This document shows positions 9,236-36,427 of a stretch of DNA of 64,000 nucleotides, in pieces; within the stretch, counting starts at the first letter, position 1; every line of letters starts with the position of its first letter. The notes below the pieces were generated by a model. The model made no database searches. It was not told where the DNA came from and saw nothing but the letters and a program-made list of their open reading frames with translations. Both the position numbers and the translations under genes were made by a program. Location: contig CAYQRM010000136.1 of the NCBI GenBank assembly GCA_964419785.1, forward strand, positions 5,305-69,304, written 5' to 3'. Source of the stretch: an uncultured Solibacteraceae bacterium. Its GTDB lineage: Bacteria; Acidobacteriota; Vicinamibacteria; Vicinamibacterales; SCN-69-37.

Positions 9236-9236
9236 G

Positions 9237-9469
9237 CATGAAGGACGTGAAGGGAATGAAGGACATGTAGTAAGAGAACCGCCCATCGATCTGACTGGCC
9301 GCCGGAGGCGGCCCAGGCGATTGGGCGAGGACACCTGGGAGCAAGAGCCAATAAACTGCCACGAGGCTCTTGTTCCCAGGTGCCCTCGCCCAATCGCGCC
9401 CGGCAAAGCCGGGTCGTCAGATCGATGGGCGGTTCCTTCATGAACTTCATTTCCTTCACGATCTTCATG
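9237..9469. repeat. 233-bp branched palindrome, copy 1 (REP/MITE-like)
   Basis: Terminal 9-mer arms catgaaggacgtgaagggaatgaag / cttcatttccttcacgatcttcatg; basal stem gaaccgcccatcgatctgac / gtcagatcgatgggcggttc; side hairpins ggccgcc-gga-ggcggcc and cccggc-aaa-gccggg; apical stem with loop aataaactgccacga. Confidence 0.9.
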
Positions 9470-9478
9470 CATCCCTGA

Positions 9479-9940: not shown

Positions 9941-9941
9941 A

Positions 9942-10174
9942 CATGAAGGACGTGAAGGGAATGAAGAACATGAAGTAAGAAGAACCGCCCATCGATCTGA
10001 CTGGCCGCCGGAGGCGGCCCAGGCGATTGGGCGAGGCCACCTGGGAACAAGAGCCTCGTGGCAGTTATTGGCTCTTGTTCCCAGGTGCCCTCGCCCCATC
10101 GCGCCCGGCGAAGCCGGGCCGTCAGATCGATGGGCGGTTCCTTCATGACCTTCATTTCCTTCATGACCTTCATG
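9942..10174. repeat. 233-bp branched palindrome, copy 2 (direct repeat of 9237-9469 with the central loop inverted)
   Basis: Same arms and side hairpins in the same order; loop tcgtggcagttatt is the reverse complement of the copy-1 loop apart from one A. Confidence 0.9.
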
Positions 10175-10230
10175 CCGAGCCTGCCGTGCCATAATTCCCG
10201 GCGACACGCCCGGTTCAACTTGGAGGCTCT

Positions 10231-18822: not shown

Positions 18823-20564
18823 TCCGATCGCTTCGCGCCTTCGTCTGGCTGCGCTGGCGGCTCATCGTCAACGGCATCCGAAGCGGCCGTCGGCGCGACA
18901 CGCTCGAGCAGGTGTCGCGCACGCTGCAGACACTGTCGCCGATTCTTCTCGGCGCGTTGTCGGTCGGATCGATTGTCGGCGCGACCGTGATGGGATTTCT
19001 TGCAGGGCGAGCTGTCGCGCACGGAGCGATGCTGCCGATCGTCGGGTTCTTCCTCTTCCGGGCGCTCCTCGGCATCCTGCTGGTGATGTCGGTCGTGATC
19101 ACTGCCCTCGCGCCCACCCAGACGCAGATGACCAGCTACACGCGGCTGTTGCTGTTGCCCATCGCGCGATCGACGCTGCACGTGCTCGAGGTCGCCGCGA
19201 ATCTTGCGGACCCGTGGGTGGCCGTGCTCGTGCCGTTGCTGCTGACGTTCGCGCTCGGATTAGCCGTCGGCGGCCGGCCGGACGTCGGTGTCGTCGCCGC
19301 CGTGGCCGCGCCAGCGATGGTGTTCGTGTTCGTATCGCTGGCGGCGCTCGTGAGCTTCGCGGTGCGATGGCTGCTGCGCAGTCGACGCCGCGGTGAGTTG
19401 TTCACGCTGCTGTTCGTGCTGGGAGTATCGCTGCTGTCGATCGTGCCGGCGATCATGTCGTCGCGAATGGATGCCGAGAGACGAGCAAAGTCGCCGACGT
19501 CGACGACGACAACGCCGACCGGCGGTCGTCGCACGCGGTCCATGCCAAGCGAGCCGTTTTCAGTGGTGAAGTTCGACGCAGCACTTCCGCGGTGGACGCG
19601 TGCGATTCCGTCGGAGCTCTACGGTCTGTCGCTCAACTCGGCGATGGCTGGTCGCCAAGGCACCGCCTGGTTGGCCGTGGTCGTGCTCATTGCCGAAGGG
19701 TTGCTGCTCTTCGCAGCATCGTCGGCCGTGCACGCGAGGCTGATCGGGTCGCTCGAAAACGAGCAAGATCATCGGCGCCGAATTTCCAAGCCGCTCGGCG
19801 GATTCGAACTGCCGTTCGTGCGACCGTCCGTCGCAGCCGTGGCGATGACCTATCTGCGGATGGCGCTGCGATCGGTGCGCGGCCGGTTGGCGATTCTTCT
19901 GCCCGCGCCGATGCTCCTGGCGATTGCGGTGCTTGTGCGGCGGATGCCGGACGTGCCGGACGGGATGTCGGCTGTCTTCCACCGGGGCGATCTGTTGTTC
20001 GGCGTCGGATCGGTATTGGCTCTGCATGCGCTCCAGCCTTTCACGATGAACTTGTTCGGCACGGACAGAGCGGGATTGACGTTGCTGTTTCTCTCGCCGA
20101 TCGACGATCGCGACCTCGCCCGCGGCAAGATCCTTGGCTGCGCGTTGCTGCTCGGCGTTTCGATGTCGCTTTGCCTTGTGGGGGCGGTGATCGTCGCGCC
20201 GGGCGGCGAGGTCTGGACGTGGCTCGCTGTGCCGATAGGCATCGCGGCCGTGTGGCTGTGGGCATCGCCGCTGGCGGTGTGGCTGTCGATCCTCTTTCCG
20301 GTCGCGGCCGATCTCAGCAAGACGGGCAAGGGCGGGAATCCACATCCGCTGGCGATGCTCGTCGGGCTCGTCGCCGTGATGGCGCTGCTTGTCCCGACGG
20401 CGCTGTTATTCGTCGCCGCGGAGTTTTGGCTGCGCGAGCCGCCGCTCGTCCTGGTCCTCGAGCTCTCCTGGCTGCTCGTCGCCGTGCTCGTCGCGTGGCC
20501 CCTCCTCAACCTCGCGGCATCCTCCCTCTCCAGCCGCCGCGAGAATTTGGCGCTCCTGAGGTAG
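18819..20564 (+). CDS. ABC-2 type permease (duplicated membrane domains)
   Basis: ATGA-coupled to the ATPase; about 12 hydrophobic helices in two halves; LLLLPI and LLFLSPI..DL..GK motifs. Confidence 0.75.
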   Translation: MIRSLRAFVWLRWRLIVNGIRSGRRRDTLEQVSRTLQTLSPILLGALSVGSIVGATVMGFLAGRAVAHGAMLPIVGFFLFRALLGILLVMSVVITALAPTQTQMTSYTRLLLLPIARSTLHVLEVAANLADPWVAVLVPLLLTFALGLAVGGRPDVGVVAAVAAPAMVFVFVSLAALVSFAVRWLLRSRRRGELFTLLFVLGVSLLSIVPAIMSSRMDAERRAKSPTSTTTTPTGGRRTRSMPSEPFSVVKFDAALPRWTRAIPSELYGLSLNSAMAGRQGTAWLAVVVLIAEGLLLFAASSAVHARLIGSLENEQDHRRRISKPLGGFELPFVRPSVAAVAMTYLRMALRSVRGRLAILLPAPMLLAIAVLVRRMPDVPDGMSAVFHRGDLLFGVGSVLALHALQPFTMNLFGTDRAGLTLLFLSPIDDRDLARGKILGCALLLGVSMSLCLVGAVIVAPGGEVWTWLAVPIGIAAVWLWASPLAVWLSILFPVAADLSKTGKGGNPHPLAMLVGLVAVMALLVPTALLFVAAEFWLREPPLVLVLELSWLLVAVLVAWPLLNLAASSLSSRRENLALLR

Positions 20565-20678
20565 GGACGGGGCTTTTTTCCACAGATTTGGCCCAAAAGG
20601 CGCCGGAGGTCGGCCGGACACTTGCCTGCCGACCTCCGGTACCTGGCAAGCCGAATCTGTGGAAAAAAGCCCCGTCCC
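20564..20678. repeat. 115-bp nested palindrome (REP/MITE-like)
   Basis: Outer arms gggacggggcttttttccacagatttggc / gccgaatctgtggaaaaaagccccgtccc (28/29 match); inner arms ccggaggtcggc / gccgacctccgg. Confidence 0.85.
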
Positions 20679-21079: not shown

Positions 21080-23746
21080 ATGTGGACGCGACTTCGGCAG
21101 GGCCTGCGTTTCTTCCAGCGCGGCGATCGCATGCACGACGAGATCCACCGCGAAATCGCGTCGCACGTGCAGATGGAAATCGATCACCGCATTGCCGCGG
21201 GCGCGTCGCCAGACGAGGCGCGCCGTTCCACGCTGATCGACTTCGGCGCCGTTGTCGCCATCGAAGAACAAGTCCAGGATGTTCGCGGACTCACATTCTG
21301 GGATCACCTCACTCAGGATCTTCGCTACGGCTGGCGCACACTTCTCCGATCGCCGGGCTACACCCTGGCGGCCGTGCTGACGCTTGGCCTGGGCATTGGT
21401 CTGAACACGGCCATGTTCAGTGTCATCAACGGCACGCTCCTCCATCCGTTGCCGTACCGTGACAGCGGCCGCCTCATCCGCATCCGCCTCGACGCACCGC
21501 TCGCGAATCGTCCCAATCTCGGCGTGTCGATCGCTGAGACGCGCGACCTTCGCGCTCGCCTCACGGGCCTCGAATCCTTCGTCGAGTACCACTCGATGCA
21601 TTTCGTCCTGCTCAATCAGGGTGAGCCTCACCGCGTGAACACGGGGGTCGTATCGTCGCAGTACTTCGACGTGTTTGGTATCAAGCCCCTCTACGGTCGG
21701 ACGTTCACGGAGTCTGACGATGTGATGGGCGCCGAGCCGGTGCTGATTCTGAGCCACGCGTTCTGGCAGACCGAATTCGGTGGCGATCCCAACGTCGTCG
21801 GCAAGACCGTCCGGATGAACGATCACAGCCACACGATCGTTGGCGTTCTGCCGGCGATCCCGCGCTATCCGAATGACGACGACGTGTACATGCCGACGTC
21901 GGCGTGCCCGATGCGCGCCGGCGCCGAGCCGGACAGCCTTACTGATCATCGCGCGTTCTCGTTTCTCAACGTCTTCGGACGGATGAAGCCGGGCGAGACG
22001 CTCGCATTGATCAACGCCGAGGCGCAGGCCGCCGGGCGCAGCTGGGTGGTGGAAGACGCGTCGCAGTATCAGTTGCTGTCGGGCTTCACGGCGTCGGCCG
22101 TGTCACTCGACGAGGAGATTACCCACGAAGCTCGGCCGATCCTCTTCACGCTCATCGGCGTCACCGCGCTCGTGCTGTTGATCGCCTGCGCCAACGTCGC
22201 GAATCTCTCACTCTCGCGGATGCTCGGTCGCGGGCGCGAGCTGGCGCTGCGGTCGGCGCTTGGTGCGAGCCGAGGACGATTGACGCGACAGCTCGTCACC
22301 GAGAGCCTCATCGTCGCGTTCGCCGGCGCCGCGCTGGCGCTGGCGATTGCGTCACCGGCGGCACGACTGCTGGCCGGCTTCGCGAGCCGGTTCACACCGC
22401 GCGCGATTGACCCGTCGATCGATGGCGTTGTCCTCGGCTTCACGCTCGTGACGGCGCTGCTCACGGGGTTGCTTTTCGGCACGGCGCCATCGCTCAGCGC
22501 GCGCCGCGTCGTCATGACGGCGCTCAAGGACGGCGCGCCGCAGGGCGGCGAAGGCCCGCGCCGCCAACGTATGCGTTCGGTGCTCGTCGTCGCGCAAGTG
22601 ACCGTGTGCTTTGCGCTCGTCGTCGCCGCCGGATTGTTTCTCGAGAGCCTGCATCGGCTGTCAACCGTCGACCTCGGGTACACGGATGACGAGCACGTGC
22701 TCACGGCGCAACTGCACGGCAACTTCTCGCGTCAGATGGCGCAGACACCAGAGGAATTCGCCCAGTTCTACAACGCCGTGCTCGACGGCTTGAAGAGGAT
22801 TCCCGGAGTCATTTCCGCGTCGGTGACGAATGCGCTGCCGATGACCGGCGGCCCCGGTCCGTTGCCGCTCAGCATCCGTGGTCAGGCGATGCCGGAGCCC
22901 GCGCCTACAGTGGACGGCAACATCATCACAAGCGAATACTTCGCGGTCCTCGGCGTGCCGGTGATTCGCGGCCGGACGTTTGCTGCAACCGACAATGCCG
23001 ACGCTCCGCGCGTGGCCATCATCAATCAGTCGATGGCGAAGCTGTGGGACAAGCGCGATCCGATCGGCCACGAGTTCACCGTCCCGGTCGGCAACGGTGA
23101 CCCGGCGACGTTCCAGGTCGTCGGCATTGTCGGCGACATTAAGCAGTACGCGATCGATCAGCAGACCCTCGCTCAGTTCTTCGTCCCGATGGCCCAGGGG
23201 CCGAGATTTGGCGCGCAGGTCATGCTGCGCACGTCGCGCGATCCCCTGACGCTCGCTGGCGCGCTCAAGACGGTCGTCCACGGGCTCGACAACCAGATTC
23301 CGGTCGAAGACATCCAGACGCTGCGCGAGCTGCGGCTGACGCAGCTGCAGTCGCCTGCGCTCGCGACGGGACTGCTGTCGATGTTCGCGGCTCTCGCGCT
23401 CGTGATTACGCTCGCGGGTATCGCGGCCGTGATCGCGACATCGGTCAGCCAGCGCACGCGCGAATTCGGCGTGCGCATGGCCCTGGGCGCGAGCAGAAGC
23501 GCGGTGTTGAGCCTCGTTCTCGGTCAGGCCGCGCGGCTCCTGGTCATCGGGCTCGTGCTCGGCACCGGCGGCGCCCTCGTATTCAGCCGTGTGCTCGCGC
23601 AGTACCTCTTCAACACGCCGCCGAACGAGCCCGATATCTACATCGCGGTCGCGGCCATCGTGTTGGTCGCGGGAACCATCGCGTGCCTCGCGCCGGCGCG
23701 GCGCGCGACGAGGGTCGATCCGCTCATCGCGCTCAGGGCTGAGTGA
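21080..23746 (+). CDS. ADOP-family duplicated ABC permease (MacB-like) with N-terminal prefix domain
   Basis: [14 protein letters not shown], two RELALR.ALGA / [11 protein letters not shown] motifs, [13 protein letters not shown]; N-terminal [15 protein letters not shown] extension. Confidence 0.92.
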
Positions 23747-23748
23747 GG

Positions 23749-23862
23749 CTTGAAAGTCGAGAAGTCGAGAAGTCGAGAAGTCGGGAACTCGGGAAGTCGC
23801 AGCGAACACATGGCGCTGAGGCCAGCTTCACTCTTCAACTTCCCAACTTCTCGACTTTCAAG
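23749..23862. repeat. Inverted GAGAAGTC 8-mer arrays with perfect 17-bp terminal inverted repeats, between convergent ADOP genes
   Basis: cttgaaagtcgagaagt (23749-23765) / acttctcgactttcaag (23846-23862). Confidence 0.8.
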
Positions 23863-23882
23863 AACGCCTGGCTTCTCGGCCT

Positions 23883-26408
23883 TCACGAATTGCGCATCGC
23901 CTGAATCGGTGCGATGCGCGCCGCTCGTCTCGCCGGCAGCCAGCTCGCCAGCAATCCGGCCGAGGTGAGCACGCCGACGACGAGCGCGATGATCAGCGGA
24001 TCGGCGCCACGTCCCTGATAGACGACTGATCGCATGCCGAGCCCAGCGGCGAACGAAAGCACAGCGCCGACCACGAGTCCGATCATCGACCACACCAAAC
24101 CTTCGCGTACGACGAGCCACGTGACGCCAGAGGGTGTCGCCCCGAGCGCGATGCGGATGCCGATCTCGCGCGTGCGGCGCGAGACGATGTACGCTTTGAG
24201 GCCGTAGAGGCCGATCGTCGCGAGAAAGAGCGCCGCGACACCGAACGTGCCGAGGATCGCGGCGAACATTCGAACCAACAAGAAGAGATCGTTTTCCGCG
24301 CGCCAGCCCGCAAGCGTCTGCACGGCCAGAATCGGCAGGCCAGCATCCACCGATGTGATCTCGCGGCGCAATCCCGGAAGCAGCGCGCCTTCCTTCGCGC
24401 CGGCCGACGACGTCCGCACGTGCAGAAAGGCGTTCGATCGGAATGTCTGGCCGTACGGCACGTAGAGATGCGGCTCGGCGCTTTCCGCAAAGAGATCGTC
24501 CCGGACGCCGGCAGCAACGCCAACCACCTCGAGGACCTGCGGTGGCTTCGCGTGCGTGCTGTCGTCGAGCTGGATCGACTGACCGATCGCGTTCTCCGTG
24601 CCGAAAACCTTGCGGGCGAGCGGTTCGTCGATGATCGCGACGTTCGGACCGCGCTCGAGCATCTCCTCCGACGCCGTGAAGTCGCGCCCCGCGAGCAGAT
24701 TCAACCCGACGGACGAGAAGTAGTCATGCGTGATCGACGTGAATGTCGCGGTCGCGAGGCCCGCGGCGTTGCGCGCATCGTTCGGATCGATCTCGGGACC
24801 GGCTCTTTGCACCGTCTGACTATCCGACATGTCGCCGAAGGGCATGATTGACGCGAGGCTTGCGGAGGCGACCTCCGGGCGCGCGCGGACGCGATCGAGA
24901 ACGCGTCGATAGATGTCGCGCGCCCGCGCTTCGTCGTAGCCGGCAAGGTTCGTGTCCATCTGCACGAGGATGCCGCGGTCGAACGTGAAGCCGGGATCGG
25001 CGCTGGCCGACTCGACGGCGCCCCGAAACGCGACGGCCGCGAGCGTCAGCATGACCAGCGAGAACGCGAGCTGTCCGGTCACGAGCAGACTCGAGATCGA
25101 CAGCCGGCCGCGGCGTCCGCCAAGCTCGCCGGCCTGGTCCTTCAACTCTCGCCCGGCCTGCGTGCGCGCGAGCTTGAACGCCGGCAGCGTCGCGAACACG
25201 AGCGTGGCGATCACGCAGCTGGCCAGCGCAGCGATCACGGTCCGCAGGTCGGGCGTTGCGTCCACCATGAACATGACGGGTGTCACCGGCGTCAGCACGG
25301 CGAGGAGCGAGCGCACCGAGAGTGCGGCCAGTAGAAGACCTGCGGCTCCGCCCACGAGCGACAGCACGAAGCCTTCGATCACGAGCTGACGCACCAGCCG
25401 CGCGCGACTGCCGCCAATCGCAAGGCGGATCGCGAATTCCTTGCGTCGCGCGCCGCCGCGCGCGAGCAGCATGTTCGCGAGGTTGAACGACGCGATGACC
25501 AGCACGATGGCCGCCATGCCGAGAAGCATGGTGATCACGCCAGCGATCTCGCGATCCGTCGTCGGGCGCGTGCTGATCGAAAAGCGCGAAAGGGGCGCGA
25601 CAAGCAATTCCTGATCGCGATTCTCGCCTGAGGCGGTCGCGCGCTCGAGGCTCGCCGCCTGCAGCGCCGGCGTCAGGGACGCCATCGTCGCGCCCGGTTT
25701 CAACTGGGCGAGCACGATCAGGCTGTACCGCTGCCGGTCCCCGAGCGTCGTCCCCGCGCCGCCGCGCATCACGTCTTCCGTGATCGCGTCGTACACACCG
25801 GTCGGCACCCAGAGTTCCGGCGTCACGAAACCGAGCGATCCGCCGAAGCCTTGTGCCGCAACGCCGACTACGGTGAACGCGCGCCCGCTGAGGCGAATGG
25901 TCCGACCGAGGATGTCGGTGCGGGCGCCGAGCCGCCGCCACATGCCATCGCTCAAGACCGCGACGAAGATGTTGGCGCTGGGACGTTCTTCGTCAGCCGT
26001 GAACGTCCGCCCCAGCGCGACGGGAGCGCCAAACGTGTCGAAGAAGTTGGCCGTCACAACGTCGGCGAGCACGCGCCGCGTGCTGTTGCCCTCGGTGAGG
26101 CCGGCGAGCGTGAGGTTGTGGGCGGCGAGCGACGCGAAGAGGTCTGTCCGTGATCGCAGCTCGGCGTAATCGGGATACGAGAAGGCACGGTACCCGTCGG
26201 GATGCGTGCGGTCGCGCGTGTAGAGGCCCACGACTTCGCCGGCCGGCCGGCCCACTCGAGGCCGGAGCAGCAGGGAGTCGGTCAGCGAAAGGACCGTTGT
26301 CGTGGCGCCCGTGCCGAGCGCGAGGACCAACGCGGCCGCGGCCGTGAATCCGCGATGCCGAATCAGCAGGCGAAACGCATAGCGGACGTCTTGGAGAACC
26401 GAAGTCAT
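23883..26408 (-). CDS. ADOP-family duplicated ABC permease (no prefix domain)
   Basis: QDVRYAFRLL..HRGF, RRKEFAIRLAIG.SR.RL, RTREIGIRIALGA, PARRAARI.P. Confidence 0.92.
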   Translation of the reverse strand: MTSVLQDVRYAFRLLIRHRGFTAAAALVLALGTGATTTVLSLTDSLLLRPRVGRPAGEVVGLYTRDRTHPDGYRAFSYPDYAELRSRTDLFASLAAHNLTLAGLTEGNSTRRVLADVVTANFFDTFGAPVALGRTFTADEERPSANIFVAVLSDGMWRRLGARTDILGRTIRLSGRAFTVVGVAAQGFGGSLGFVTPELWVPTGVYDAITEDVMRGGAGTTLGDRQRYSLIVLAQLKPGATMASLTPALQAASLERATASGENRDQELLVAPLSRFSISTRPTTDREIAGVITMLLGMAAIVLVIASFNLANMLLARGGARRKEFAIRLAIGGSRARLVRQLVIEGFVLSLVGGAAGLLLAALSVRSLLAVLTPVTPVMFMVDATPDLRTVIAALASCVIATLVFATLPAFKLARTQAGRELKDQAGELGGRRGRLSISSLLVTGQLAFSLVMLTLAAVAFRGAVESASADPGFTFDRGILVQMDTNLAGYDEARARDIYRRVLDRVRARPEVASASLASIMPFGDMSDSQTVQRAGPEIDPNDARNAAGLATATFTSITHDYFSSVGLNLLAGRDFTASEEMLERGPNVAIIDEPLARKVFGTENAIGQSIQLDDSTHAKPPQVLEVVGVAAGVRDDLFAESAEPHLYVPYGQTFRSNAFLHVRTSSAGAKEGALLPGLRREITSVDAGLPILAVQTLAGWRAENDLFLLVRMFAAILGTFGVAALFLATIGLYGLKAYIVSRRTREIGIRIALGATPSGVTWLVVREGLVWSMIGLVVGAVLSFAAGLGMRSVVYQGRGADPLIIALVVGVLTSAGLLASWLPARRAARIAPIQAMRNS

Positions 26409-26455: not shown

Positions 26456-27682
26456 TTATCTCCTGTCGACGACGGTCTTTCCTCCCTTCATGACCCAGAC
26501 GACGTGGTTGATGACGACGTCGATATCGGCGAGTGGGTCGCCGTCGACAGCGACGATGTCGGCCCAGGCGCCGGGCGTGATGCGGCCGAGATCGGACGCG
26601 TGGCTGAGGAGCGCCGCGGGAATCGTCGTCGCGGTCTCGAGCGCTTGCGCAGGCGTCATGCCGGCCTTGATCATCCACCCCAGCTCACGCGTGTTCTGAC
26701 CGAACATCGAGTACACGGCATCCGATCCCATTGCGATTTTCACGCCGGCGGCGACCGCGCGCTTCGTCGATTCGAGATTCTTCGCGATGTAATCCTGGAG
26801 CGGGCCAATGGTGTCGGGCGCGAAGCCGTATTCGTCCTTCGCGTCCACGTAGTAGCGGTTGTGATCAATGGTCGGCACCCACACGGTGCCGCGCTTGACC
26901 ATATCGGCGATCGTCTCATCGTCGAGATCGATGCCGTGCTCGACGGAGTCGGCGCCGGCGCGCACGGCGTCCTTCACGCCGGACGGACCGTACGAATGAA
27001 TAGCGACTTTGTGTCCCAGCGCGTGCGTCGTATCGACGAGAGCCTTCATCTCGTCGAAGGTGACGGTTTGCGTCGTATCGACGCTCTCGAAGCTGCCGCG
27101 CGAGCCGTAGAGCTTGACCCAATCTGAACCGGCGTCCACGCGCGCCTTCGCCTGTTGGCGCATCGCGTCTGGATTCGGACCGCCGCGACCGGCCGAGATC
27201 CCCTGGCCGGCGACGAACATACGCGGGCCGATGGCGGTGCCGGCGTTGATCGCGTCGCGCGCGGCGTAGTCGAGGCCGCGCGACGCGCCGAGGTCGCGGA
27301 TCGTCGTCACGCCCGTCTCGAGTGTGCGTCGGCCGTTCTTGATCACGTCGTCAACAGTTGTCGGCGACGTGCGCCGGCCGCGCGGCTGCGTGCTCGGCGC
27401 GCCGTCCCAGTAGTACGTGATGTGCGTGTGCGCGTCGATGAGGCCAGGGATGGCCGTGTACCGGCGGAGATCGATGACGCTCGCGCCAGCCGGCACGGCT
27501 GTGTCGCCCGAGCTGACGCTCACGACGCGCTCGCCTTCGACCACGACCACGGCGTCTTGCGTAACGCGGCCGGTGCCGTCGACCAAGGTGCCGAATCGGA
27601 GGGCGGTCAGGGAGGCGTGCGGCGCATGGGCCAAGGGCGCGAAGAGACTTAGGGCGAGGGCGGAAAGCAGGGCGCTTCGCAC
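26456..27682 (-). CDS. Secreted metal-dependent amidohydrolase (Xaa-Pro dipeptidase-like, Amidohydro_1)
   Basis: PGLIDAHTH, GVTTIRDLG, WVK, VAIH, SVEHG, AMGSDA, ADIVAVDGDPL. Confidence 0.9.
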   Translation of the reverse strand: MRSALLSALALSLFAPLAHAPHASLTALRFGTLVDGTGRVTQDAVVVVEGERVVSVSSGDTAVPAGASVIDLRRYTAIPGLIDAHTHITYYWDGAPSTQPRGRRTSPTTVDDVIKNGRRTLETGVTTIRDLGASRGLDYAARDAINAGTAIGPRMFVAGQGISAGRGGPNPDAMRQQAKARVDAGSDWVKLYGSRGSFESVDTTQTVTFDEMKALVDTTHALGHKVAIHSYGPSGVKDAVRAGADSVEHGIDLDDETIADMVKRGTVWVPTIDHNRYYVDAKDEYGFAPDTIGPLQDYIAKNLESTKRAVAAGVKIAMGSDAVYSMFGQNTRELGWMIKAGMTPAQALETATTIPAALLSHASDLGRITPGAWADIVAVDGDPLADIDVVINHVVWVMKGGKTVVDRR

Positions 27683-27704
27683 GGAAGGGTCTAGGGTAAA
27701 CCTT

Positions 27705-27830
27705 AGAAGTTCGGGTGAATAGAGAACTGAGAAGTCCGGGTGAGCTGAGAAGTCCGGGGTGAGCTGAGAAGTCCGGGGTGAACTGAGAAGTCCGGGGTGA
27801 ACTGAGTCCGGGGTGAACTAAGAGGTCCGG
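27705..27830. repeat. Tandem array of 18-19-nt unit GAGAAGTCCGGGGTGAACT (about 6-7 copies), left flank of four-helix-bundle gene
   Basis: Units start at 27729, 27747, 27766, 27785, 27804, with partial copies either side; no unique spacers. Confidence 0.9.
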
Positions 27831-28243
27831 CGCCCCAGCCGTCTCGGGCGGCCCTTGCGTTTGAGGGCGCGGTCCTTGGCCGCCAGGGCGCACTGCGTGT
27901 GGTAGAGGTTGAGCGTCGCGCGGCGGCAACGCTGCGCCCAGACGAGCGCCGCGCGGCAGTCAGGTTCGATGAAGTGGCCGCGATCGATTCCGTCCTTCAC
28001 GTGCGTGACGGCTTCGCGGAGAGAAGCAAGCGAGTAGCGAAGGAACTGCGCGAACTCGCCGGCCTTGCCTCTCCCAAATCCTTCACTTGTCGTCGACGCT
28101 ACTCCAGCGGCCGCTCGGCGCAGTTGATCTGTGAAATCGAAATCCTTCCGCGCGCCTGGCGAGGCCTTGACTAGCGCGTAGACCTCGAGCTTGAACTCTT
28201 CAGCAAACTGATACGCGATGAGATCTTCAAGCGTGCGAGCCAT
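27818..28243 (-). CDS. Four-helix-bundle protein (TIGR02436 / 23S rRNA-IVS / Avd-like family)
   Basis: MARTLEDLIAYQ.A, DQLRRAA..V.S..SEGFGR....EFAQFLRYSLASL.E; start reassigned to ATG 28243. Confidence 0.9.
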   Translation of the reverse strand: MARTLEDLIAYQFAEEFKLEVYALVKASPGARKDFDFTDQLRRAAAGVASTTSEGFGRGKAGEFAQFLRYSLASLREAVTHVKDGIDRGHFIEPDCRAALVWAQRCRRATLNLYHTQCALAAKDRALKRKGRPRRLGRRTS

Positions 28244-28386
28244 GATCTTCAGCTGTGCAACTCGCACGCCCGATTCGCGAGTGAATTTCCGCCAGATTCT
28301 CTCGCGCGTCGCAATTTCTGCGATCTCGAGCGCCGCGTCGGCTTGCAGAAATCTCATCACCTCGTCGCGGACTTCTCGTTGCATTC

Positions 28387-28530
28387 TGGACTTGCCGGTT
28401 CACACGGACTTCTCAGCTTATCCGGGCTTCTCAGTGCGCTTGGACCTCTCAGTTCGCCTGGACTTCTCAATTCACCCGGACTTCTCGGTTCACTCCCGGA
28501 CTTCTTAGTTCGCCCCGGACCTCTTCGTTC
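28387..28530. repeat. Degenerate inverted array of the same 18-19-nt unit (GGACTTCTCAGTTCACCC, about 8 copies), right flank of four-helix-bundle gene
   Basis: Reverse complement of the 27705-27830 unit, e.g. cggacttctcggttcac, tggacttctcaattcacc. Confidence 0.85.
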
Positions 28531-28619
28531 TTTACTTTTTTCTTCTTGTGTGCAAAATAAGAAGTCCCGCCCGCCGGATCCCGGCTCGGGACCAGGCCGA
28601 AGCCAAACGAGAAGCGATT

Positions 28620-28660
28620 GACGAGCGCCGTCGGAGACGGTGGTCGTGTTTCGTGTTTTT
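28620..28660 (+). promoter_or_regulatory. Terminator-like hairpin in the leader of the GSIII gene (possible attenuator)
   Basis: acgagcgccgtc-gga-gacggtggtcgt followed by gtttcgtgttttt, about 60 nt before the start codon. Confidence 0.35.
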
Positions 28661-28717
28661 CACGAGCTCGCGCGGCGGTCTGCGACCTTGTCCCTGTGTT
28701 GTTTTCTGGAGGAAGCA

Positions 28718-30895
28718 ATGGGTTCGTCAGCGCTTCACGACGCCACGAAAGGCATCATTGATTGGGGAAAGAGCGGCGCCAAGTCCGCGCAGCCGCGCGC
28801 GAAGGCGACCGAAATTTTTGGCTCACTGACTTTCAACGACGACGTCCAGCGTCGCCGGCTGCCGCGCGACGCGTACAAGTCGTTGCGGCGCACGATCACG
28901 CAGAGCCAGCCCCTCGATCCCTCGATCGCCGACGTCGTCGCGACCGCGATGAAAGATTGGGCCATCGAGCATGGCGCGACCCACTACACGCACTGGTTCC
29001 AGCCGCTCACCGGCATCACCGCCGAGAAGCATGACTCGTTCATCGCGCCGTCGCCGGAGGGCCGCGCGGTCGCGGAGTTCGGCGGCAAGGAGCTGATCAA
29101 AGGCGAGCCCGACGCGTCGAGCTTCCCGTCTGGCGGCATGCGGTCTACGTTCGAGGCGCGCGGCTACACGGCGTGGGATCCGACGAGCCCACCGTGGCTG
29201 CTCGTCGGTCCAAACGGCACGACGCTCGTGATTCCGACGGCGTTCGTGAGCTGGACTGGCGAGTCGCTCGACACGAAGACGCCGCTTCTGCGCTCGATTG
29301 AAGCGCTGTCCAAGCAGGCGATGCGCATTCTGAAGCTGTTCGGCTCGAAAGCCGAGCGCGTCGCGACGACGTGCGGACCCGAGCAGGAGTACTTCCTGAT
29401 CGATCGCCACTTCTATTTCGCTCGGCCCGATCTCATCAACGCCGGTCGGACGCTCTACGGCGCGCGCCCGCCGAAGGGCCAGGAGCTCGAAGATCAGTAC
29501 TTCGGCCACATTCCCGAACGCGTGCTCGCGTTCATGCACGAGGTCGAAAACGAGCTCTACAAAGTCGGCGTGCCGGTGAAGACGCGTCACAACGAGGTCG
29601 CGCCGAGCCAGTACGAAGTCGCGCCGATCTTCGAGATGGCCAACGTCGCCACCGATCATCAGATGATGACGATGGAGACCATGCGCCGCGTCGCGCCGAA
29701 GTACGGCCTGGCGTGCCTGTTCCACGAGAAGCCGTTTGCCGGCGTCAACGGCAGCGGCAAGCACCTCAACTGGAGCATGAGCGACGACCTCGGGAACAAC
29801 CTGCTGAACCCCGGCGACACGCCGCACGAGAACATTCAGTTCCTCGTGTTCTGCGCGGCGATGCTGCTCGCGGTGAACAAGTGGCAGGGGTTGCTGCGCA
29901 TGTCGATCGCGAGCGCGGGCAACGATCACCGCCTCGGCGCGAACGAAGCGCCGCCGGCGATCATCTCGATCTTCCTCGGCGACATGTTGACGGACATCTT
30001 TCAGCAGATCGAGAAAGGCGGCGCGAAGCAGACCAAGAGCGGCGGCATCCTCGACACCGGGGTGTCCGTGCTGCCGAAGCTGCCGCGCGACGCCGGCGAC
30101 CGCAACCGCACGAGCCCGTTCGCGTTCACGGGCAATAAGTTCGAGTTCCGCGCCGTGTCGTCCAACCAGAGCATCGCGTTCCCGAATATCGCGCTCAACG
30201 TCGCCGCCGCCGACGCGCTCGATTACGTCGCCACCGAGCTCGAAGCCGCGGTCAAGAGCAAGAAGTCGATCGAGAAGGCTGTGAAAGAACTGCTGCCGAA
30301 GTTGATCAAAGACAACAAGCGGATCATCTTCAACGGCAACGGCTATGCCGACGAGTGGCGCAAGGAAGCCGGCAAGCGCGGGCTCCTCAACTTGACCAAC
30401 ACCGTCGACGCGCTGACGGAGATCGTCAAGCCCGCCGTCATCAAGACGTTCGAGAAGCACAAGGTACTCAACGACCGCGAGCTGCACGCGCGCTACGAAA
30501 TCGCGCTCGAGACCTACGTGAAGACCGTGAACGTCGAGGCGCAGTTGATGGTGCTGATGGCCAACCGCTACATTCTGCCGTCGGCGCTCAAGTACCAGAA
30601 GGACGTCGCCGAGTCGGTCGCGGCAGTCCGCGAGGCGGGCGGGTCGACGAGAGAGGCGAAGAAGCTGCTCGGCGAGATCGCGTTGCTCGTCGACGAGCTG
30701 CGGGTGCGCGCCGACAAGCTCGCAAAAGCGCTCGATCACTCCGCCGGGAGCGCCGAGAAGCACGCCAAATTCGTTCGAGACACGGTCGTGCCGGCGATGA
30801 CCGCGTTGCGTGAGACGGGCGATCAGATCGAGCTGCTGATGCCCCACGAGACGTGGCCGTTGCCGACGTACAGAGAAATGCTGTTCATCAAGTAA
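28718..30895 (+). CDS. glnN: Glutamine synthetase type III
   Basis: [93 protein letters not shown]; GGAGG RBS. Confidence 0.96.
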
Positions 30896-31020
30896 GTCGA
30901 GTAAGTCGAGAAGTCGGGAGGTCGAAAGGTCGAAAGGTTGCGAAGGCGATCTACTTTTTGACTTCTCGACCTCTCGACTTTTTGACTTCTCGACTTCCTG
31001 ATCTCTCGACTTCTTGACCT
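30892..31020. repeat. Inverted GAGAAGTC-type 8-mer arrays between convergent genes, no cargo
   Basis: Left gtaagtcga gtaagtcga gaagtcgg gaggtcga aaggtcga; right gacttctc gacctctc gacttttt gacttctc gacttcct. Confidence 0.8.
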
Positions 31021-31021
31021 T

Positions 31022-33442
31022 CTATTCGCTCTTAAGCACTGTCACAGGATCGGTCCTCGCCGCGCGGACCGCCGGAATCAGCGTGGAGATCGCCGCGCAC
31101 GCGAGGATTGCGAGCCCGCCCGCGGCCATTGGCGCCGGGGCAAGCGGTGATACCTGAAAGAGCACGCGCGAAAGCAGCGGACCGGCGGCAGTCACGAGCA
31201 GCCAGCCGGCCGCGAGTCCCGCGCCCGCGAGCACGAGGCCGTGCGTCATGACGAGGCGACCGATGTCCACTGGCCGCGCGCCAAGGCTCAGCCTCACCGC
31301 AAGCTCGCGCTGACGCGACGTGACCGTCCACGAGAGCAATCCGTAGATCCCCACGACCGCGAGTACGAGGGCGAGCACACCGAAGGCGATCAGCAGTCGC
31401 ATCAACAATCGCGGCTGGGCGCTGAGCTGTTCGAAGCGCGCGTCGAGCATCTGCACGCGATCGAGCGGCAGCGTGCTGTTGGTCTCGCGCAGCGTCGAAC
31501 GCAACGCCGCCTGCAGTCCCGCCGCGTCCGAGCCACGCACGGTGATATCGAGCGACCTGTACGGAAACTGACGCGTCGTGTGGAAGATCGCCGGCTCGAT
31601 CGGCTGGCCGGGCGGCGTGTTGGCCGTGTCGCCGACGACGCCGATGATCTCGAAGGGCTGATCGACCAGCAGGTTGCGGCCCATCGGTCCGATCACGGTA
31701 ACGTGCGATCGCAGATGCTGACCGACCGCGCGCTCGCCCGGAAAGAATTGCTTCGCGAACGCCGCGTTGACCACGACCGCGGCTTGCGCCGCGACGGTAT
31801 CGCGCGTCGTAAACAGCCGACCGTCGATGAGCGGCATCGCAAGCGTCTCGAAATAGCCGTCAGTCACCGAGAAGTGCTGCGCGATGGGTGCGTCTTCCGG
31901 ACGCCGGTTGGGCCGCCCGACGATGTCGAAGGCGATCCGCCAGCCAGGCTCGAACGGCAGAAACGTCGTCGCACCGGCCGCCGTCACGCCAGGCTTCTGC
32001 CGGAGCTGGTCCAGAAACGACGCGTAGAACGCGTCGACCTGCGCCCAATCGCTGTACGTCGGACCGGTCAGCTGCAGGTTCGCCGTGAGCACGCCGGCCG
32101 ACGACACGCCGCTCGGTACGGCCACGAGTGCGGCGACGCTCTTCACGAGCAGCGCCGACGCCGTCACGAGCGCGCAGGCCAGCGCAACCTCCGCGACCAC
32201 GAGCGAGCGATGCGCGAGTCTGCCGCTCGTCGTCGACGTCCGATCGCCGTCACGCAGCGTCGAGGCCCGTCGCTGGCGCACCATGAGCAGCGAGGGGACC
32301 AGGCCGAAGCCGAGCGTCATCGCCGTGATGATGCCGACAACGACGCCGGCGACGCGCCAGTTGAGCGACACCTGATCGAGCCGCGGAATCGCGACGGGCA
32401 TCGTCGCGACGAGCACCTGCACCAGTCCCCAGGCGAGGACCAAGCCAACGCTGCCGCCGACGACCGAGAGCGCGGCGCTTTCCGCGATGAGCTCGCGCAT
32501 CAGGCGCAGCGGCGACGCGCCAAGCGCGACGCGTACGGCAAGCTCACGGCGTCGATCGAGCGATCGCGTCAGCAGCAGGCCGGCGACGTTGAACGCGCCG
32601 ATGAGCATCAAGAGAAGGACGGCGCCGAGCAGCACGAGGAGCGCGGGACGATAAAAGCCGAGTTGGCTCTCGAGCAGCGGCATCACGCGCGTGCTCCACG
32701 CGTGATTGGTCGTCGGAAAGGCGGCGGCAAGGCGACTCGCGAGCGCGGCGGTGTCACGCCCCGCTTGCTCGACGGTGATGCCCGGCGCGAGTCGCGCGAC
32801 CGTCTCCATGAAGTGCGCGGCGCGGCTGTGCTGCGTCAGGTCCCACTGCAATCGTTCCCACACATCGACGTCGTCCGGAAATGTGAAGCGCGGCGGCATG
32901 ACGCCAACGACGGTGTACGGCGTGTCGTTCAGCCGGATCGGACGGCCGATGAGCCCGCGATCCGCGTTGTATCGCGCGCGCCAGAGGCGATCGCTGATGA
33001 CCGCGATGAGCTGTCGGTCGTAGAACGGCCCATTCGCAGGAAAGCCCGGTCCGACTTCAGGCGTGACGCCGAGCAACTGGAACAGATTCGCGCTGACCTC
33101 AATTGTCTTCACGCGGACCGGTTCGATCGCATCGTCGGTCAAGTTGACGTCCGGCCGCCACCATGCGGCGGCATCCTCGAACGTGCCGTGCATCGCGCGC
33201 ACGTCCATGAAGTTCACGGGCGACACGCGCTCCTGGCGCAGTCCCTTCTCGTAGTTCGTATCCCACAGCGTGACGAGGCGATCCGGCGCGCGAAACGGCA
33301 GCGGCTTCAGGACGACCCCATCGACGATCGTGTACACCGCCGCCGCCGCGCCGATGCCGAGCCCGAGCACGACGACGGTGAGCGTCGCGAAGGCTGGGTG
33401 CTGGCGGAACTGACGAAACGCGATGCGCAGATCGTGGAACAC
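31022..33442 (-). CDS. ADOP-family duplicated ABC permease (no prefix domain)
   Basis: HDLRIAFRQF..HPAF, RRRELAVRVALGASP, RQRELAVRLSLGA, PAVRAARTDP..VLK. Confidence 0.92.
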   Translation of the reverse strand: MFHDLRIAFRQFRQHPAFATLTVVVLGLGIGAAAAVYTIVDGVVLKPLPFRAPDRLVTLWDTNYEKGLRQERVSPVNFMDVRAMHGTFEDAAAWWRPDVNLTDDAIEPVRVKTIEVSANLFQLLGVTPEVGPGFPANGPFYDRQLIAVISDRLWRARYNADRGLIGRPIRLNDTPYTVVGVMPPRFTFPDDVDVWERLQWDLTQHSRAAHFMETVARLAPGITVEQAGRDTAALASRLAAAFPTTNHAWSTRVMPLLESQLGFYRPALLVLLGAVLLLMLIGAFNVAGLLLTRSLDRRRELAVRVALGASPLRLMRELIAESAALSVVGGSVGLVLAWGLVQVLVATMPVAIPRLDQVSLNWRVAGVVVGIITAMTLGFGLVPSLLMVRQRRASTLRDGDRTSTTSGRLAHRSLVVAEVALACALVTASALLVKSVAALVAVPSGVSSAGVLTANLQLTGPTYSDWAQVDAFYASFLDQLRQKPGVTAAGATTFLPFEPGWRIAFDIVGRPNRRPEDAPIAQHFSVTDGYFETLAMPLIDGRLFTTRDTVAAQAAVVVNAAFAKQFFPGERAVGQHLRSHVTVIGPMGRNLLVDQPFEIIGVVGDTANTPPGQPIEPAIFHTTRQFPYRSLDITVRGSDAAGLQAALRSTLRETNSTLPLDRVQMLDARFEQLSAQPRLLMRLLIAFGVLALVLAVVGIYGLLSWTVTSRQRELAVRLSLGARPVDIGRLVMTHGLVLAGAGLAAGWLLVTAAGPLLSRVLFQVSPLAPAPMAAGGLAILACAAISTLIPAVRAARTDPVTVLKSE

Positions 33443-33477: not shown

Positions 33478-33486
33478 GGGGTCCTT

Positions 33487-33917
33487 GGAAATGAGGCAAT
33501 GGGGCAATGAGGCAATGCGTGAATGTGCGTCAGGTGCTGCGGTTTTCCCGGAAGGTCCGCCGAGCGGCGGCAAAGATTGCGCGGAGTTCGCTGGCCTCCT
33601 GCAGCGCTGCGTCGAGTTCGCTGGCGCTGACAGGGCACCTAGCAGGGATCGCGCCTGGTGTTGTAGCGAGTCGGGCGAGGACCGCCCTGGCTATCTCCAG
33701 CCACAGCACGGACTCATCGGCCTCTTCTGCCGGTCAATGCAATCGACATACCCAATGCCGTAATCGCGAAGCCAGGGCAATGAGGCCGCAGGGCAGAGAG
33801 CTAATGCCCGTCCTGAGCCGCGTGGCGGGATCGCAGAATCTGCGATCCCGCTCGCGTCCGCGCATTTGCATTTTCTGCCATTCACCAATTGCCCCATTGC
33901 CCCATTGCCTCATTTCC
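33487..33917. mobile_element. Putative non-autonomous element with 39-bp terminal inverted repeats made of GGCAATG(A/G) 8-mers, enclosing a decayed four-helix-bundle gene
   Basis: Left ggaaatgaggcaatggggcaatgaggcaatgcgtgaatg vs reverse complement of right arm ggaaatgaggcaatggggcaatggggcaattggtgaatg (36/39). Mobility is inferred, not shown. Confidence 0.55.
33530..33733 (-). pseudogene. C-terminal fragment of a four-helix-bundle protein
   Basis: Minus-strand frame reads PAEEADESVLWLEIA...LDAALQEASELRAIFAAARRT, preceded by an in-frame TGA (33734-33736); N-terminal half not recognisable. Confidence 0.75.
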
Positions 33918-34041
33918 CAGAATTCGGTGTCTAAGTGCAGAGAGCCGGAAGACAGCACGATGCGCGGCATTGCAGCGAGCCTGCATCCGGGGCCTGCTGC
34001 CACAGGTTCCGGTCCGCCTGCCGGCGTTGGCTGCTTCCGGC

Positions 34042-34692: not shown

Positions 34693-36427
34693 GGCGCTCC
34701 ACGATGGCGTCGGCGATCCGACGACGAGCCTGAATGGTGTTCACGGGCGGGATCTTGAGCAGCCGCCGCAGGGCCGCGAGCGTCGTCCGCAGGGTGTCGC
34801 CGGAGCCGAGCGAGGGGAGCAGCGTGCGCATCGACGCGTCCGCCCGGAGACCGGCGTCATGCGCGAGCACCGACGCGGCGTCGGCTTGGAGCGTGGCGGT
34901 TTGGAGCCTTGCTGACGCGGCTTGCTCGGCGCGCAGGAGCGCGCTTTCGGCGATGAACACGTCGATGATGATATCCGCGACGAGCATGACCGTCTCCTGC
35001 TCGTGCTGCAGCGCCTCACCGTGCGTTTCGAGCGCAAGCCCGATCGCCATGAGCGCCGTCTTCTTGAGCGCCGCGATGGTCCGGCGCGCGTTCGCGACCG
35101 GCTCGTCCGTCTCGTCGCCGAGCGCCGGCGGGCTCATCAATTCATCCTGCAGGCGCTTCGCTGCGGCGACAATCGGCAGTCCGCTCTTGAGCGACCGCTT
35201 GATGAGCATGCTCGGCACGAGGAGGCGATTGATCTCGTTCGTGCCTTCAAAGATGCGATTGACGCGCGCGTCGCGGTAATGACGCTCCGCCGGATAGTCC
35301 GCGACGAAGCCGTTGCCGCCGTGAATCTGCACGTTCTCGTCGACGACGAAATCGAGCATTTCGCTCGCGGCGACCTTGAGGATCGAGGCTTCGACCGCGA
35401 ACTCCTCGAGCGCGGCCGCCGCCTCACTGCCGGACGCGATGGTCGCGTCGATCAATCCCGCCGTCCGGTACAAGGCGCTCTCGACCGCGAACGTGCGAAT
35501 CGCCATCTCGGCGAGCTTGTGCCGGATCGCGCCGAACGACGCAATCGGCTGGCCGAATTGCCGCCGCGACGCCGCGTACGTTGCGGCCTCGACCAGGCAT
35601 GAGCGCGCGCCGCCCGTGCACATCCCTGCGAGCTTGAACCGTCCGTAGTTGAGCACGTTGAACGCGATCTTGTGGCCCCTGCCGACTTCGCCCAGCAGGT
35701 TCGCGGCTGGGACCTCCGCGTCGGCCAGCACGATCGGCGTCGTCGACGATCCGTGGAGGCCCATCTTGTGCTCTTCCTTGCCGTTGGCGACGCCCTTGAA
35801 CGCGCGCTCGACGATGAACGCGGAGAACTGCTCGCCGTCGACCTTGGCAAAGACGATGAACAGGTCGGCGAAGCCACCGTTGGTGATCCAAAGCTTCTCG
35901 CCGTTGAGGCGCCACGATCCGTCGGGCTGACGCATCGCGCGCGCGCGCGCGCCAAGCGCGTCCGATCCCGAGGCGGATTCGCTCAGGCAGTACGCACCAA
36001 TCATCTCGCCGTTCACGATGCGCGGCAGGTACTTCCGCCGCTGCTCGTCGGTGCCGAAGCACAGAATCGGAAGGATCGTGAGGCCCGTCTGCGCCCCAAA
36101 CGTCGTCGCGAACGACGCCGTGATGCCGATCACTTCGCCCACGACGATCGACGCGGTCTTGTCGAGCTCGACGCCGCCGTACGCTTCGGGCACGTCGGTG
36201 CCCAGCAGGCCGAGATCGCCGGCGCGTTTGATCAGTTGCCGCGCGAGGGTCCAGTTCTTCTTCTCGAGCTCTGGCAATACGGGCAGCACTTCTTTGGTGA
36301 CGAATTCGGTCGCCGTCTGGGCCACAAGCCGATGCTCGTCGCTCAATCGCTCCGGCGTGCCGATCTCACCGGCCTCGACGTCCGTCGTCAGCCACTCTCC
36401 GCCTTTGTGCGCCACGCTCGTGGTCAT
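34673..36427 (-). CDS. fadE: Acyl-CoA dehydrogenase (FadE/YusJ-like)
   Basis: AYCLSESASGSDA, LNGEKLWITNG, KMGLHGSST, LNYGRFKL, QIHGGNGF, YRDAR.NRIFEGTNEINR; start reassigned to ATG 36427 (ATGA overlap). Confidence 0.93.
   Translation of the reverse strand: MTTSVAHKGGEWLTTDVEAGEIGTPERLSDEHRLVAQTATEFVTKEVLPVLPELEKKNWTLARQLIKRAGDLGLLGTDVPEAYGGVELDKTASIVVGEVIGITASFATTFGAQTGLTILPILCFGTDEQRRKYLPRIVNGEMIGAYCLSESASGSDALGARARAMRQPDGSWRLNGEKLWITNGGFADLFIVFAKVDGEQFSAFIVERAFKGVANGKEEHKMGLHGSSTTPIVLADAEVPAANLLGEVGRGHKIAFNVLNYGRFKLAGMCTGGARSCLVEAATYAASRRQFGQPIASFGAIRHKLAEMAIRTFAVESALYRTAGLIDATIASGSEAAAALEEFAVEASILKVAASEMLDFVVDENVQIHGGNGFVADYPAERHYRDARVNRIFEGTNEINRLLVPSMLIKRSLKSGLPIVAAAKRLQDELMSPPALGDETDEPVANARRTIAALKKTALMAIGLALETHGEALQHEQETVMLVADIIIDVFIAESALLRAEQAASARLQTATLQADAASVLAHDAGLRADASMRTLLPSLGSGDTLRTTLAALRRLLKIPPVNTIQARRRIADAIVERRGYIYS

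Follow-up and report, generated by a model that had tools for sequence, protein, structure and literature searches.

A four-helix-bundle gene of the rRNA intervening-sequence family lies between inverted tandem arrays in an acidobacterial genome, as do many of its relatives

The window analysed here is a stretch of 64,000 nt from an uncultured Solibacteraceae bacterium (Vicinamibacterales, SCN-69-37; contig CAYQRM010000136.1 of assembly GCA_964419785.1). At positions 27705 to 28530, between an amidohydrolase gene and glnN, it carries a cassette in which a functional four-helix-bundle gene is set between opposite arrays of one 18-19-nt unit, in the manner of the intervening sequences (IVSs) of rRNA genes. 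A first-pass annotation of this DNA had described an intact gene for a protein resembling IVS proteins and Avd, the accessory protein of diversity-generating retroelements (DGRs), with inverted arrays of about 19 nt on both sides and the stop codon inside the left array. The family matches, structure predictions, substitution ratios and repeat analyses given below agree with this description.

The gene lies at 27818-28246 on the minus strand and belongs to the TIGR02436/PF05635 family, also known as the 'S23p' or 23S rRNA IVS protein family. The mechanically called open reading frame (ORF) on this strand, 27818-28384, is longer than the gene, and its extension is not kept as protein in relatives. 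Since the homologues begin at the ATG at 28244-28246 (MARTLEDL...), the product is 142 amino acids long. PF05635 was its sole Pfam match (1.3e-16; 61.1 bits against a cut-off of 33.8), and TIGR02436 matched at 1e-16 (61.1 bits against a cut-off of 24). The AlphaFold2 monomer model (predicted local distance difference test score 92.8) consists of four long helices in a bundle, followed in the sequence by a basic C-terminal tail. In Foldseek, the template modelling (TM) scores were 0.88 to XCC0516 (2gsc), 0.87-0.90 to BT_0352 (2rld), and 0.80-0.85 to the DGR protein Avd (4dwl, 8ub7). By sequence, the protein resembles the XCC0516 group (phmmer against 2gsc, 2.7e-5), and its nearest solved relatives were deposited with five chains each. 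The conserved family motif R-x3-S-x3-N-x2-E, as quoted in PMC3936711, corresponds to QLRRAAAGVASTTSEG in the window protein, which retains Arg and Glu but has Gly in place of Ser and Thr in place of Asn; EGFGR is invariant across the subfamily. The ratio of nonsynonymous to synonymous substitution rates against orthologues was 0.12-0.33, and thus the gene is under purifying selection. PADLOC gave no defence-system match for this protein.

The downstream (3′) arm, at 27705-27830 on the minus strand, is made of about six units of GGACTTCTCAGTTCACC(CC) when read on the gene strand. Tandem Repeats Finder (TRF) reported this left array at 27724-27830 with a period of 19, 5.8 copies, 89% matches, and a score of 158. 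Its unit on the plus strand is GAACTGAGAAGTCCGGGGT, and one more degenerate unit starts near 27700. The first unit of this arm codes the final three codons, R-T-S, and the TAG stop (CGG ACC TCT TAG TTCACC), which lies at 27818-27820. The start of the amidohydrolase gene, at 27682, is about 23 nt beyond the end of the array. The upstream (5′) arm, at 28368-28530 on the minus strand, has about 8.5 degenerate units of GTGAACTGAGAAGTCCGG in the gene-strand reading (TRF, 28368-28524; period 18, 8.5 copies, 69% matches) and occupies the divergent region that separates the gene from glnN. The right array is the reverse complement of the left one, with inverted arms of up to 60 nt and, among them, 38-nt arms at 87% complementarity. 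When one arm was aligned locally with the reverse complement of the other, the score was 90, while placements of the same geometry elsewhere in the window (n = 599) gave a median of 18 and a maximum of 40. In the predicted fold of the sense strand, 78 base pairs form between the arms, and the minimum free energy is -397 as against -319 ± 8 for shuffled sequences.

The arms are 110-160 nt long, and their units stand head to tail without spacers. A CRISPR array was therefore ruled out, as its units would be parted by unique spacers. The rest of the window gave no further array built of the full 18-19-nt unit; the single other match to AGAAGTCC, at 28560, is a lone unit beside the cassette. This lone inverted unit, AAGAAGTCC (28559-28567), forms a small hairpin (28498-28567) with the outermost upstream unit across an A+T-rich spacer. 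Both the lone unit and the spacer are kept in all orthologous loci, and a GGACTTCT core was found upstream of the array in every orthologue. The cassette does not lie within an rRNA gene, its flanks being the amidohydrolase gene and glnN. No Rfam match was obtained in 27000-29200 at E ≤ 1, and a scan of the cassette for sigma-70 promoters found none.

Is this arrangement kept in relatives? Close relatives of the gene were found only in metagenomes and in one Vicinamibacterales genome assembled from a metagenome; the genome scan gave a single locus, L007. The proteins are 96% (L005), 81% (L006), 76% (L001-L004), 61% (L007), and 57% (L010 and L011) identical to that of the window. All the fetched relatives retain the gene divergent from glnN together with both arrays, and a conserved gene without arrays was not encountered at this site. 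In most loci whose downstream flank was recovered, the gene is just upstream of the amidohydrolase gene. The arrays vary from 4 to 18 copies, and the homogeneous arm is the upstream or the downstream one, depending on the lineage. The consensus GTGAACTGAGAAGTCCGG is 83-100% identical between lineages, whereas four-fold degenerate sites are only 35-55% identical (synonymous divergence, dS, 0.7-2). One position of the unit has changed in a complementary manner in both arms: L006 has GTCCTG/CAGGAC and L007 has GTCCAG/CTGGAC, where GTCCGG/CCGGAC is found elsewhere. Four strain variants with an identical protein and an identical degenerate upstream array have 5, 5, 6 (the window), and 8 downstream units. 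This is slippage in progress, as had been suspected from the unequal decay of the two arrays.

Since the gene and both arrays are found at the glnN site in all relatives, the cassette is an old, fixed resident that is passed on vertically, and selection acts on its arms. The arms are thus a selected, cognate, inverted pair tied to the gene, with a slipping copy number. The first-pass annotation had also proposed a mobile cassette or, alternatively, binding sites for the protein; the latter would be consistent with the strong conservation of the unit. Recent mobility is not borne out: the glnN-adjacent site is fixed across saturated synonymous sites (dS about 1-2), and among the Vicinamibacterales relatives (Acidobacteriota) the cassette does not look recently mobile. 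No target-site duplication was seen at the arm ends, and the cassette has no transposase of its own. A transposon or miniature inverted-repeat transposable element was rejected, because the cassette is a single copy at a conserved locus in all relatives, without duplication or transposase.

Some of these loci have further peculiarities. In one strain group, L002 (5440-6321) and L004 (670-1012), the downstream array is truncated to about 2.5 units; the Mutator-family (IS256-type) transposase gene next to it suggests to me that an insertion sequence (IS) has gone into the array. In the sister locus L001, an array of 18 units has been called as a 112-aa ORF, and an 841-aa permease gene comes directly after the array with no amidohydrolase gene between them. 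The arrays thereby generate spurious ORFs, of which the 188-aa product with an extended start in the window is another. L012 (1-1345) has a related four-helix-bundle gene with a 24-nt unit (GGGGGGACAAGAACCGGGAAGGAA) upstream and a direct-orientation copy downstream; the called ORF extends into the array, and the complement of the unit is present only at the contig end.

Does the same packaging occur in the rest of the family? A broad family alignment retrieved 80 metagenomic loci whose proteins are 29-45% identical to the window protein. In the 59 unique loci with both flanks, the upstream flank was scored against the reverse complement of the downstream flank. The median score was 34 in this inverted orientation; it was 20 for flanks compared directly and 18 for permuted pairs. 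When the flanks were 150 nt long, 51% of the real placements reached a score of 30 or more, versus 0 of 741 sliding controls in the same loci. Within 150 nt of the gene, TRF detected an upstream array in 53 of 73 loci and a downstream one in 55 of 67, against a background of 0.9 arrays per kb. Overall, some 75-80% of the loci have short tandem arrays. No rRNA and no Rfam match was found in the 20 best family loci, and the neighbouring genes are mostly co-oriented with the gene (28 versus 4 upstream, 21 versus 7 downstream).

A period of 7 (or 14/21) dominates in these loci, and the median arm length is 34 nt on both sides. Typical arm pairs are GTCCTGA x5 / TCAGGAC x4, GGTTTGT / ACAAACC, GTAACTGA / TCAGTTAC, and GGTTCAC / GTGAACC. 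The arms abut the ORF: the upstream arm mostly ends 4-15 nt before the start codon, and the downstream arm begins at or over the stop codon. When the 61 heptamer units are read as they stand in the upstream arm, 55 contain GT, mostly as GTTC, GTAC, or GTCC, and the motif counts revealed that the polarity of the unit is fixed relative to the orientation of the gene. Unit similarity tracks protein similarity (Mantel r = 0.25, 0 of 2000 permutations). Cultured cyanobacteria offer the same picture. On plasmid pNPUN02 of Nostoc punctiforme, GTCAGGA x5 precedes gene NPUN_RS35280 and its complement covers the stop codon, and a four-helix-bundle gene of Calothrix NIES-22 is flanked by GGGTGTA / TACACCC. 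A minority of family loci have non-inverted arrays or a displaced partner; in L071, L072/L076, L059, and L090, the arrays are direct, or a direct copy stands first downstream and the inverted partner about 170 nt beyond it. In summary, array-flanked packaging is the common state of the TIGR02436/PF05635 family in many phyla, usually with 7-8-nt units.

The window holds a second intact cassette, at 9235-10176 on the plus strand, whose gene is of the GxxExxY type (PF13366, 3.3e-40; ORF 9479-9940; PD-(D/E)XK fold). Judging from the motif spacing, its start is likely a GTG near 9567. The gene is bracketed by two near-identical 235-nt composite hairpins, each consisting of a CATGAAGGA array, a near-perfect palindrome of about 165 nt, and a complementary TCCTTCATG array, in this order. 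The relatives L093 and L095 have the same layout, and five further GxxExxY contexts all have inverted short tandem arrays. Arrays of 8-mers were found at L103 (CACAGAGG), L106 (CACGGAGG), and L101 (CACAAAGA), and composite hairpins on both sides at L102 and L107, the latter with one upstream and two downstream. In the test that the first-pass annotation had proposed, the TIGR02436 family and the GxxExxY genes are both strongly enriched for flanking inverted arrays. One GxxExxY search gave 3027 relatives, and the scan of viral contigs gave only 2 loci. PADLOC returned only a weak generic PD-(D/E)XK match for GxxExxY.

A third locus, at 33484-33920 on the minus strand, has inverted AATGAGGC/AATGGGGC arrays facing their complement, with 42-nt arms that are 90% complementary. 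The approximately 350 nt between the arms contain no intact ORF and retain a palindrome, GCAGAATCTGC, and a GG-N10-GC motif. Going by its arms and these shared motifs only, this is probably a decayed cassette. A possible frame remnant of a four-helix-bundle gene in it, WLEIARAVLARL, is not statistically supported (hidden Markov model E ~1, no Pfam match).

The GG-N10-GC motif is common to the cassettes of the window. Before the four-helix-bundle gene, it reads GGCGTGCGAGTTGCA (28256-28270, minus strand), and in the form GGCGYG-N4-TTGCA it stops about 12 nt short of the start in both intact genes. Its GG and TTGC are invariant in the 7 aligned orthologous upstream regions. It is also present at 9535-9549 before the GxxExxY gene, in the decayed cassette, and at L106 and L107, again before GxxExxY genes; among other family members, it is rare (1 of 73 loci). 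Between the motif and the upstream arm lies a palindromic motif, GCAGAAATTGC (TCGCAGAAATTGCGA; 28311-28321, minus strand), which is kept in orthologues. Exact matches to GCAGWAWYTGC occur in the window only at 9481, 28311, and 33833, one per cassette, and the palindrome TGCAG-N3-CTGCA sits 45-75 nt upstream of the start codons. By comparison with the generally known consensus, the GG-N10-GC motif with its upstream palindrome looks like a sigma-54-type -24/-12 promoter. Its position about 12 nt before the start codons would then imply nearly leaderless mRNAs, and the presence of motif and palindrome before unrelated genes hints at a shared regulon. On the other side of the upstream arm, the glnN leader (28531-28717) is highly conserved in all orthologous loci (e.g. 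GGCGGGACTTCTTATTTTGCACA and GGCCTGGTCCCGAGCCGGGATCCGGC); it contains what looks like a terminator hairpin (28626-28642) with a T-rich run after it, and it matches no Rfam family.

Arrays without an enclosed ORF were also found in the window. A hairpin of inverted GAGAAGTC-type 8-mers lies at 23749-23862 between convergent permease genes (TRF, 23754-23799, 5.8 copies; 33-nt arms, 85% complementary), and another, of inverted AAGTCGAG / GACTTCTC arrays with 39-nt arms, lies at 30891-31023, where the ends of glnN and a permease gene converge. An array of 7 copies of ACTTCTCG at 36431-36485 has no inverted partner and overlaps the 3′ end of the mechanical ORF 36424-37656 on the minus strand. It had been noticed before that the arrays at 23.7, 30.9, and 36.4 kb contain an 8-mer of the 19-nt unit, and this sharing, in the form GAGAAGTC/GACTTCTC, is real. 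The further link then drawn to 15.0 and 38.3 kb through CCGGGGT is its weakest part, as these are short, poor arrays of 3.3-3.4 copies in or at ORF ends. At 3752-3815, an array of CATGAAGGT with one inverted copy encloses no gene, and the CATGAAGG array at 3.75 kb can be set beside the type found at the GxxExxY cassette. A large hairpin without tandem units (20564-20678; 54-nt arms, 83% complementary, 7-nt loop) comes directly after the ORF ending at 20564. Many ORFs in the window are 800-900 amino acids long (21080-26408, 31022-33442, and others), and several arrays are at their 3′ ends; the two that were tested are duplicated MacB_PCD/FtsX permeases, which are typical of Acidobacteriota.

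What might the arms do? The reading that I prefer, with a probability of roughly one half, combines a stem with multivalent recognition, at the RNA or the DNA level. The two arms would zip into a long, register-tolerant stem from which the ORF is looped out; the stem would have at least 78 base pairs if one transcript holds both arms, and by analogy it would work like the RNase III-cut stem of rRNA intervening sequences. In favour of an RNA stem are the rRNA intervening sequences of the same protein family, the predicted 78-bp fold, and the position of the arms in most family cassettes, where they must be transcribed together with the ORF. The 18-19-nt unit would be a multivalent recognition site, most likely for the ring-forming protein of the cassette itself. 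Replication slippage would shift the copy number, and selection would hold the unit sequence and the complementarity of the arms. The conservation of the unit, the GT core found across phyla, and the arm lengths near five heptamers suggest sequence-specific multivalent recognition. The cassette's own protein would be the obvious candidate binder, by analogy with its solved relatives, which are five-chain rings, and with its fold relative Avd, which is part of a ribonucleoprotein.

Several observations weigh against this model. Among the arm mismatches of 35 family loci, 27 would be G-U in the sense strand and 44 in the antisense strand, and 93 are transversions. In 7 orthologous loci, the sense duplexes were not consistently more stable than the antisense duplexes. 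This strand test by wobble and duplex energy lends no support to sense-RNA pairing, yet it is not decisive. The lengths of the two arms are uncorrelated in family loci (Spearman 0.09). If the -24/-12-like motif is a promoter, the upstream arm is outside the gene's own mRNA, and read-through cannot supply the arm because glnN is divergent. In L001-L004, the downstream unit has changed to GGACTTCATGGCTCATCC, and 16 of 18 positions pair, wobble included, when paired by hand. Gene conversion between inverted repeats could explain the co-variation of the arms equally well. A separate idea, that the heptamers are three-frame stop signals (PMC4679880), was dropped because the share of units with a stop codon is near expectation (about one third against about 28%, a rough hand count).

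There is a small chance that the arrays act only as double-stranded DNA, as iteron-like sites for the four-helix-bundle protein or a host nucleoid protein. Such sites would determine how active the sigma-54-type promoter is and act as insulators for glnN and the amidohydrolase gene, and the inverted symmetry would merely mean that one site has been placed on both sides. Not only the complementarity but the unit sequence itself is conserved far above neutral sites, and there is no sense-strand wobble bias. The arm lengths vary independently, both centred on about 34 nt (about five heptamers), and the ORF is separated from the upstream arm by the -24/-12-like motif and the palindrome. Very similar paired arrays in Geobacter metallireducens were taken for IHF/HU or 'global regulator' sites (PMC2700814). 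However, the upstream arm of most family members leaves no room for a promoter in the 4-15 nt before the start codon, and it must therefore be transcribed there. Moreover, a period of 7 bp is out of phase with the DNA helix, and the classic relatives inside rRNA work as RNA stems. To my knowledge, no TIGR02436/PF05635 four-helix-bundle protein binds double-stranded DNA sequence-specifically.

It is rather improbable that the arms mark the termini of an element able to move or propagate itself and resembling the REPIN/RAYT systems (doublets of repetitive extragenic palindromic (REP) sequences forming hairpins, and the REP-associated tyrosine transposases). The four-helix-bundle and GxxExxY proteins would in that case spread or maintain paired-array hairpins in trans, in the genome and in rRNA helices. 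The ORF-less arrays with a common 8-mer core at 23.7, 30.9, and 36.4 kb and the CATGAAGG array could be products of such an activity. In the metagenomic loci, distant arrays share the unit of the cassette in 7 of 33 cases versus 1.1 expected. Geobacter has 24 + 21 + 8 ORF-less pairs whose units resemble those beside both gene families; such genes occur inside cas operons and in 16S and 23S insertions, and the GxxExxY protein has a nuclease fold. On the other hand, there is no presence/absence polymorphism, the cassette remains at one locus across saturated dS, and no target-site duplications were seen. The units differ between cassettes of one genome, and the junction change in L002 and L004 is that of an IS256-type insertion into the array. 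I also know of no catalytic activity of the four-helix-bundle protein.

A related proposal, which I hold tentatively and consider doubtful, is that both protein families are trans-acting partners of a widespread repeat system, each subfamily recognising its own unit, of 7-9 nt in general and 18-19 nt in the cassette. If this is true, paired tandem-repeat hairpins would be created, maintained, or spread through bacterial genomes. One mechanism would then account for several features at once: STRR (short tandemly repeated repetitive) sequences and TAACTGA heptamers in cyanobacteria, the paired sites described in Geobacter, the hairpins of the window that lack an ORF, and the rRNA intervening sequences. 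The system would be a REPIN/RAYT counterpart in which a ring protein like Avd and a PD-(D/E)XK nuclease take part.

That the arrays are functionless, being slippage-prone hairpins or terminator or REP-like remnants that shelter small dispensable ORFs, is very improbable: copy number is polymorphic between strains, some ORF-less hairpins stand at convergent gene ends, no RNA wobble signature was seen, and arm lengths are uncorrelated, but the unit consensus far exceeds four-fold sites (83-100% versus 35-55%), the arms change in a compensatory manner, the enrichment is extreme and specific (51% versus 0 of 741), the polarity relative to the gene is fixed with a GT core common across phyla, and the cassette occupies a divergent promoter region rather than a terminator position.

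How do the known systems compare with the preferred stem-and-recognition model and with the cassette itself? The nearest are the 23S rRNA intervening sequences of Coxiella burnetii, Leptospira, and others, in which an S23p/PF05635 ORF likewise lies within terminal inverted repeats forming a stem. GxxExxY genes are presumably the other type of ORF within rRNA intervening sequences. In Coxiella, the S23p ORF is inside a 28-bp inverted-repeat stem cut by RNase III, and 2-3 tandem heptamers, variable in number, stand just upstream of the ORF (PMC4990558). In contrast, the cassette of the window is between protein-coding genes, its arms are arrays of 110-160 nt and not a unique 28-bp repeat, and its subfamily seems to carry a -24/-12-type promoter of its own.

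Avd, which forms a pentamer, shares the four-helix-bundle fold (TM 0.80-0.85) and is part of the DGR ribonucleoprotein, according to the title of 8ub7. Unlike a DGR, the cassette has no reverse transcriptase and no template/variable repeat pair within about 4 kb, where the only neighbours on either side are MacB/FtsX permeases, the amidohydrolase gene, and glnN. In the REPIN/RAYT systems (Bertels & Rainey 2011, PMC3116915), one gene likewise lies between inverted short repeats, which also occur without the gene in the intergenic DNA of the same genome; in the window, the three ORF-less arrays have the GAGAAGTC core in common with the cassette, and arrays of the full unit were found only at the cassette. 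They differ in that the gene of the cassette is not a Y1 (IS200/IS605-like) transposase, its repeats are tandem arrays and not single palindromes, and no sign of movement was found.

In Geobacter metallireducens, 24 + 21 + 8 site pairs, the two members of each on opposite strands, have the units GTTGCTYN, TCTCCGTS, and MTYCTGA and are so far unexplained (Aklujkar et al. 2009, PMC2700814). These sites have 3-5 tandem units of 7-9 nt and lie between genes of operons (PMC2700814). Their unit types match those beside four-helix-bundle genes (GTTGCTG and GTYCTGA) and GxxExxY genes (CCTCCGTG). As described, however, the two sites of a pair are separated by about 100 nt that hold no ORF, the pairs are not tied to either gene family, and their units are shorter than the 18-19 nt of the cassette.

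The STRR heptamer repeats of cyanobacteria were reportedly described by Mazel et al. in 1990. TAACTGA heptamers are found between genes of Beggiatoaceae, cyanobacteria, and Bacteroidetes in 2-6 tandem copies, the last of which is just before a start codon (MacGregor 2015, PMC4679880). On the Nostoc and Calothrix plasmids, inverted heptamers of this sort stand on both sides of the four-helix-bundle genes, and units of the GTAACTGA type occur in L060 and L081. In contrast, the reports treat direct repeats without an inverted partner or an enclosed gene, and the period of the cassette is 18-19 nt.

Genes named 23S_rRNA_IVP have been recorded within operons of cas genes and, in the Candidate Phyla Radiation (CPR), within rRNA insertions, and they are listed as CRISPR/cas-associated (PMC3936711, PMC10910872). 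The flanking arrays and the operon-internal position may contribute to this reported association. The literature search found no paper that ties TIGR02436/PF05635 or GxxExxY genes to flanking arrays, and the family-wide rule appears to be previously undescribed. Both TIGR02436/PF05635 and GxxExxY/PF13366 are multi-copy families without known function. The packaging between arms, with a selected unit and selected complementarity, provides a concrete candidate ligand for both. It also links the two families to heptamer arrays, to the paired 'regulator sites', and to rRNA intervening sequences, among which the cassette takes its place as an IVS-type element outside rRNA, with array arms and an unusual 18-19-nt unit.

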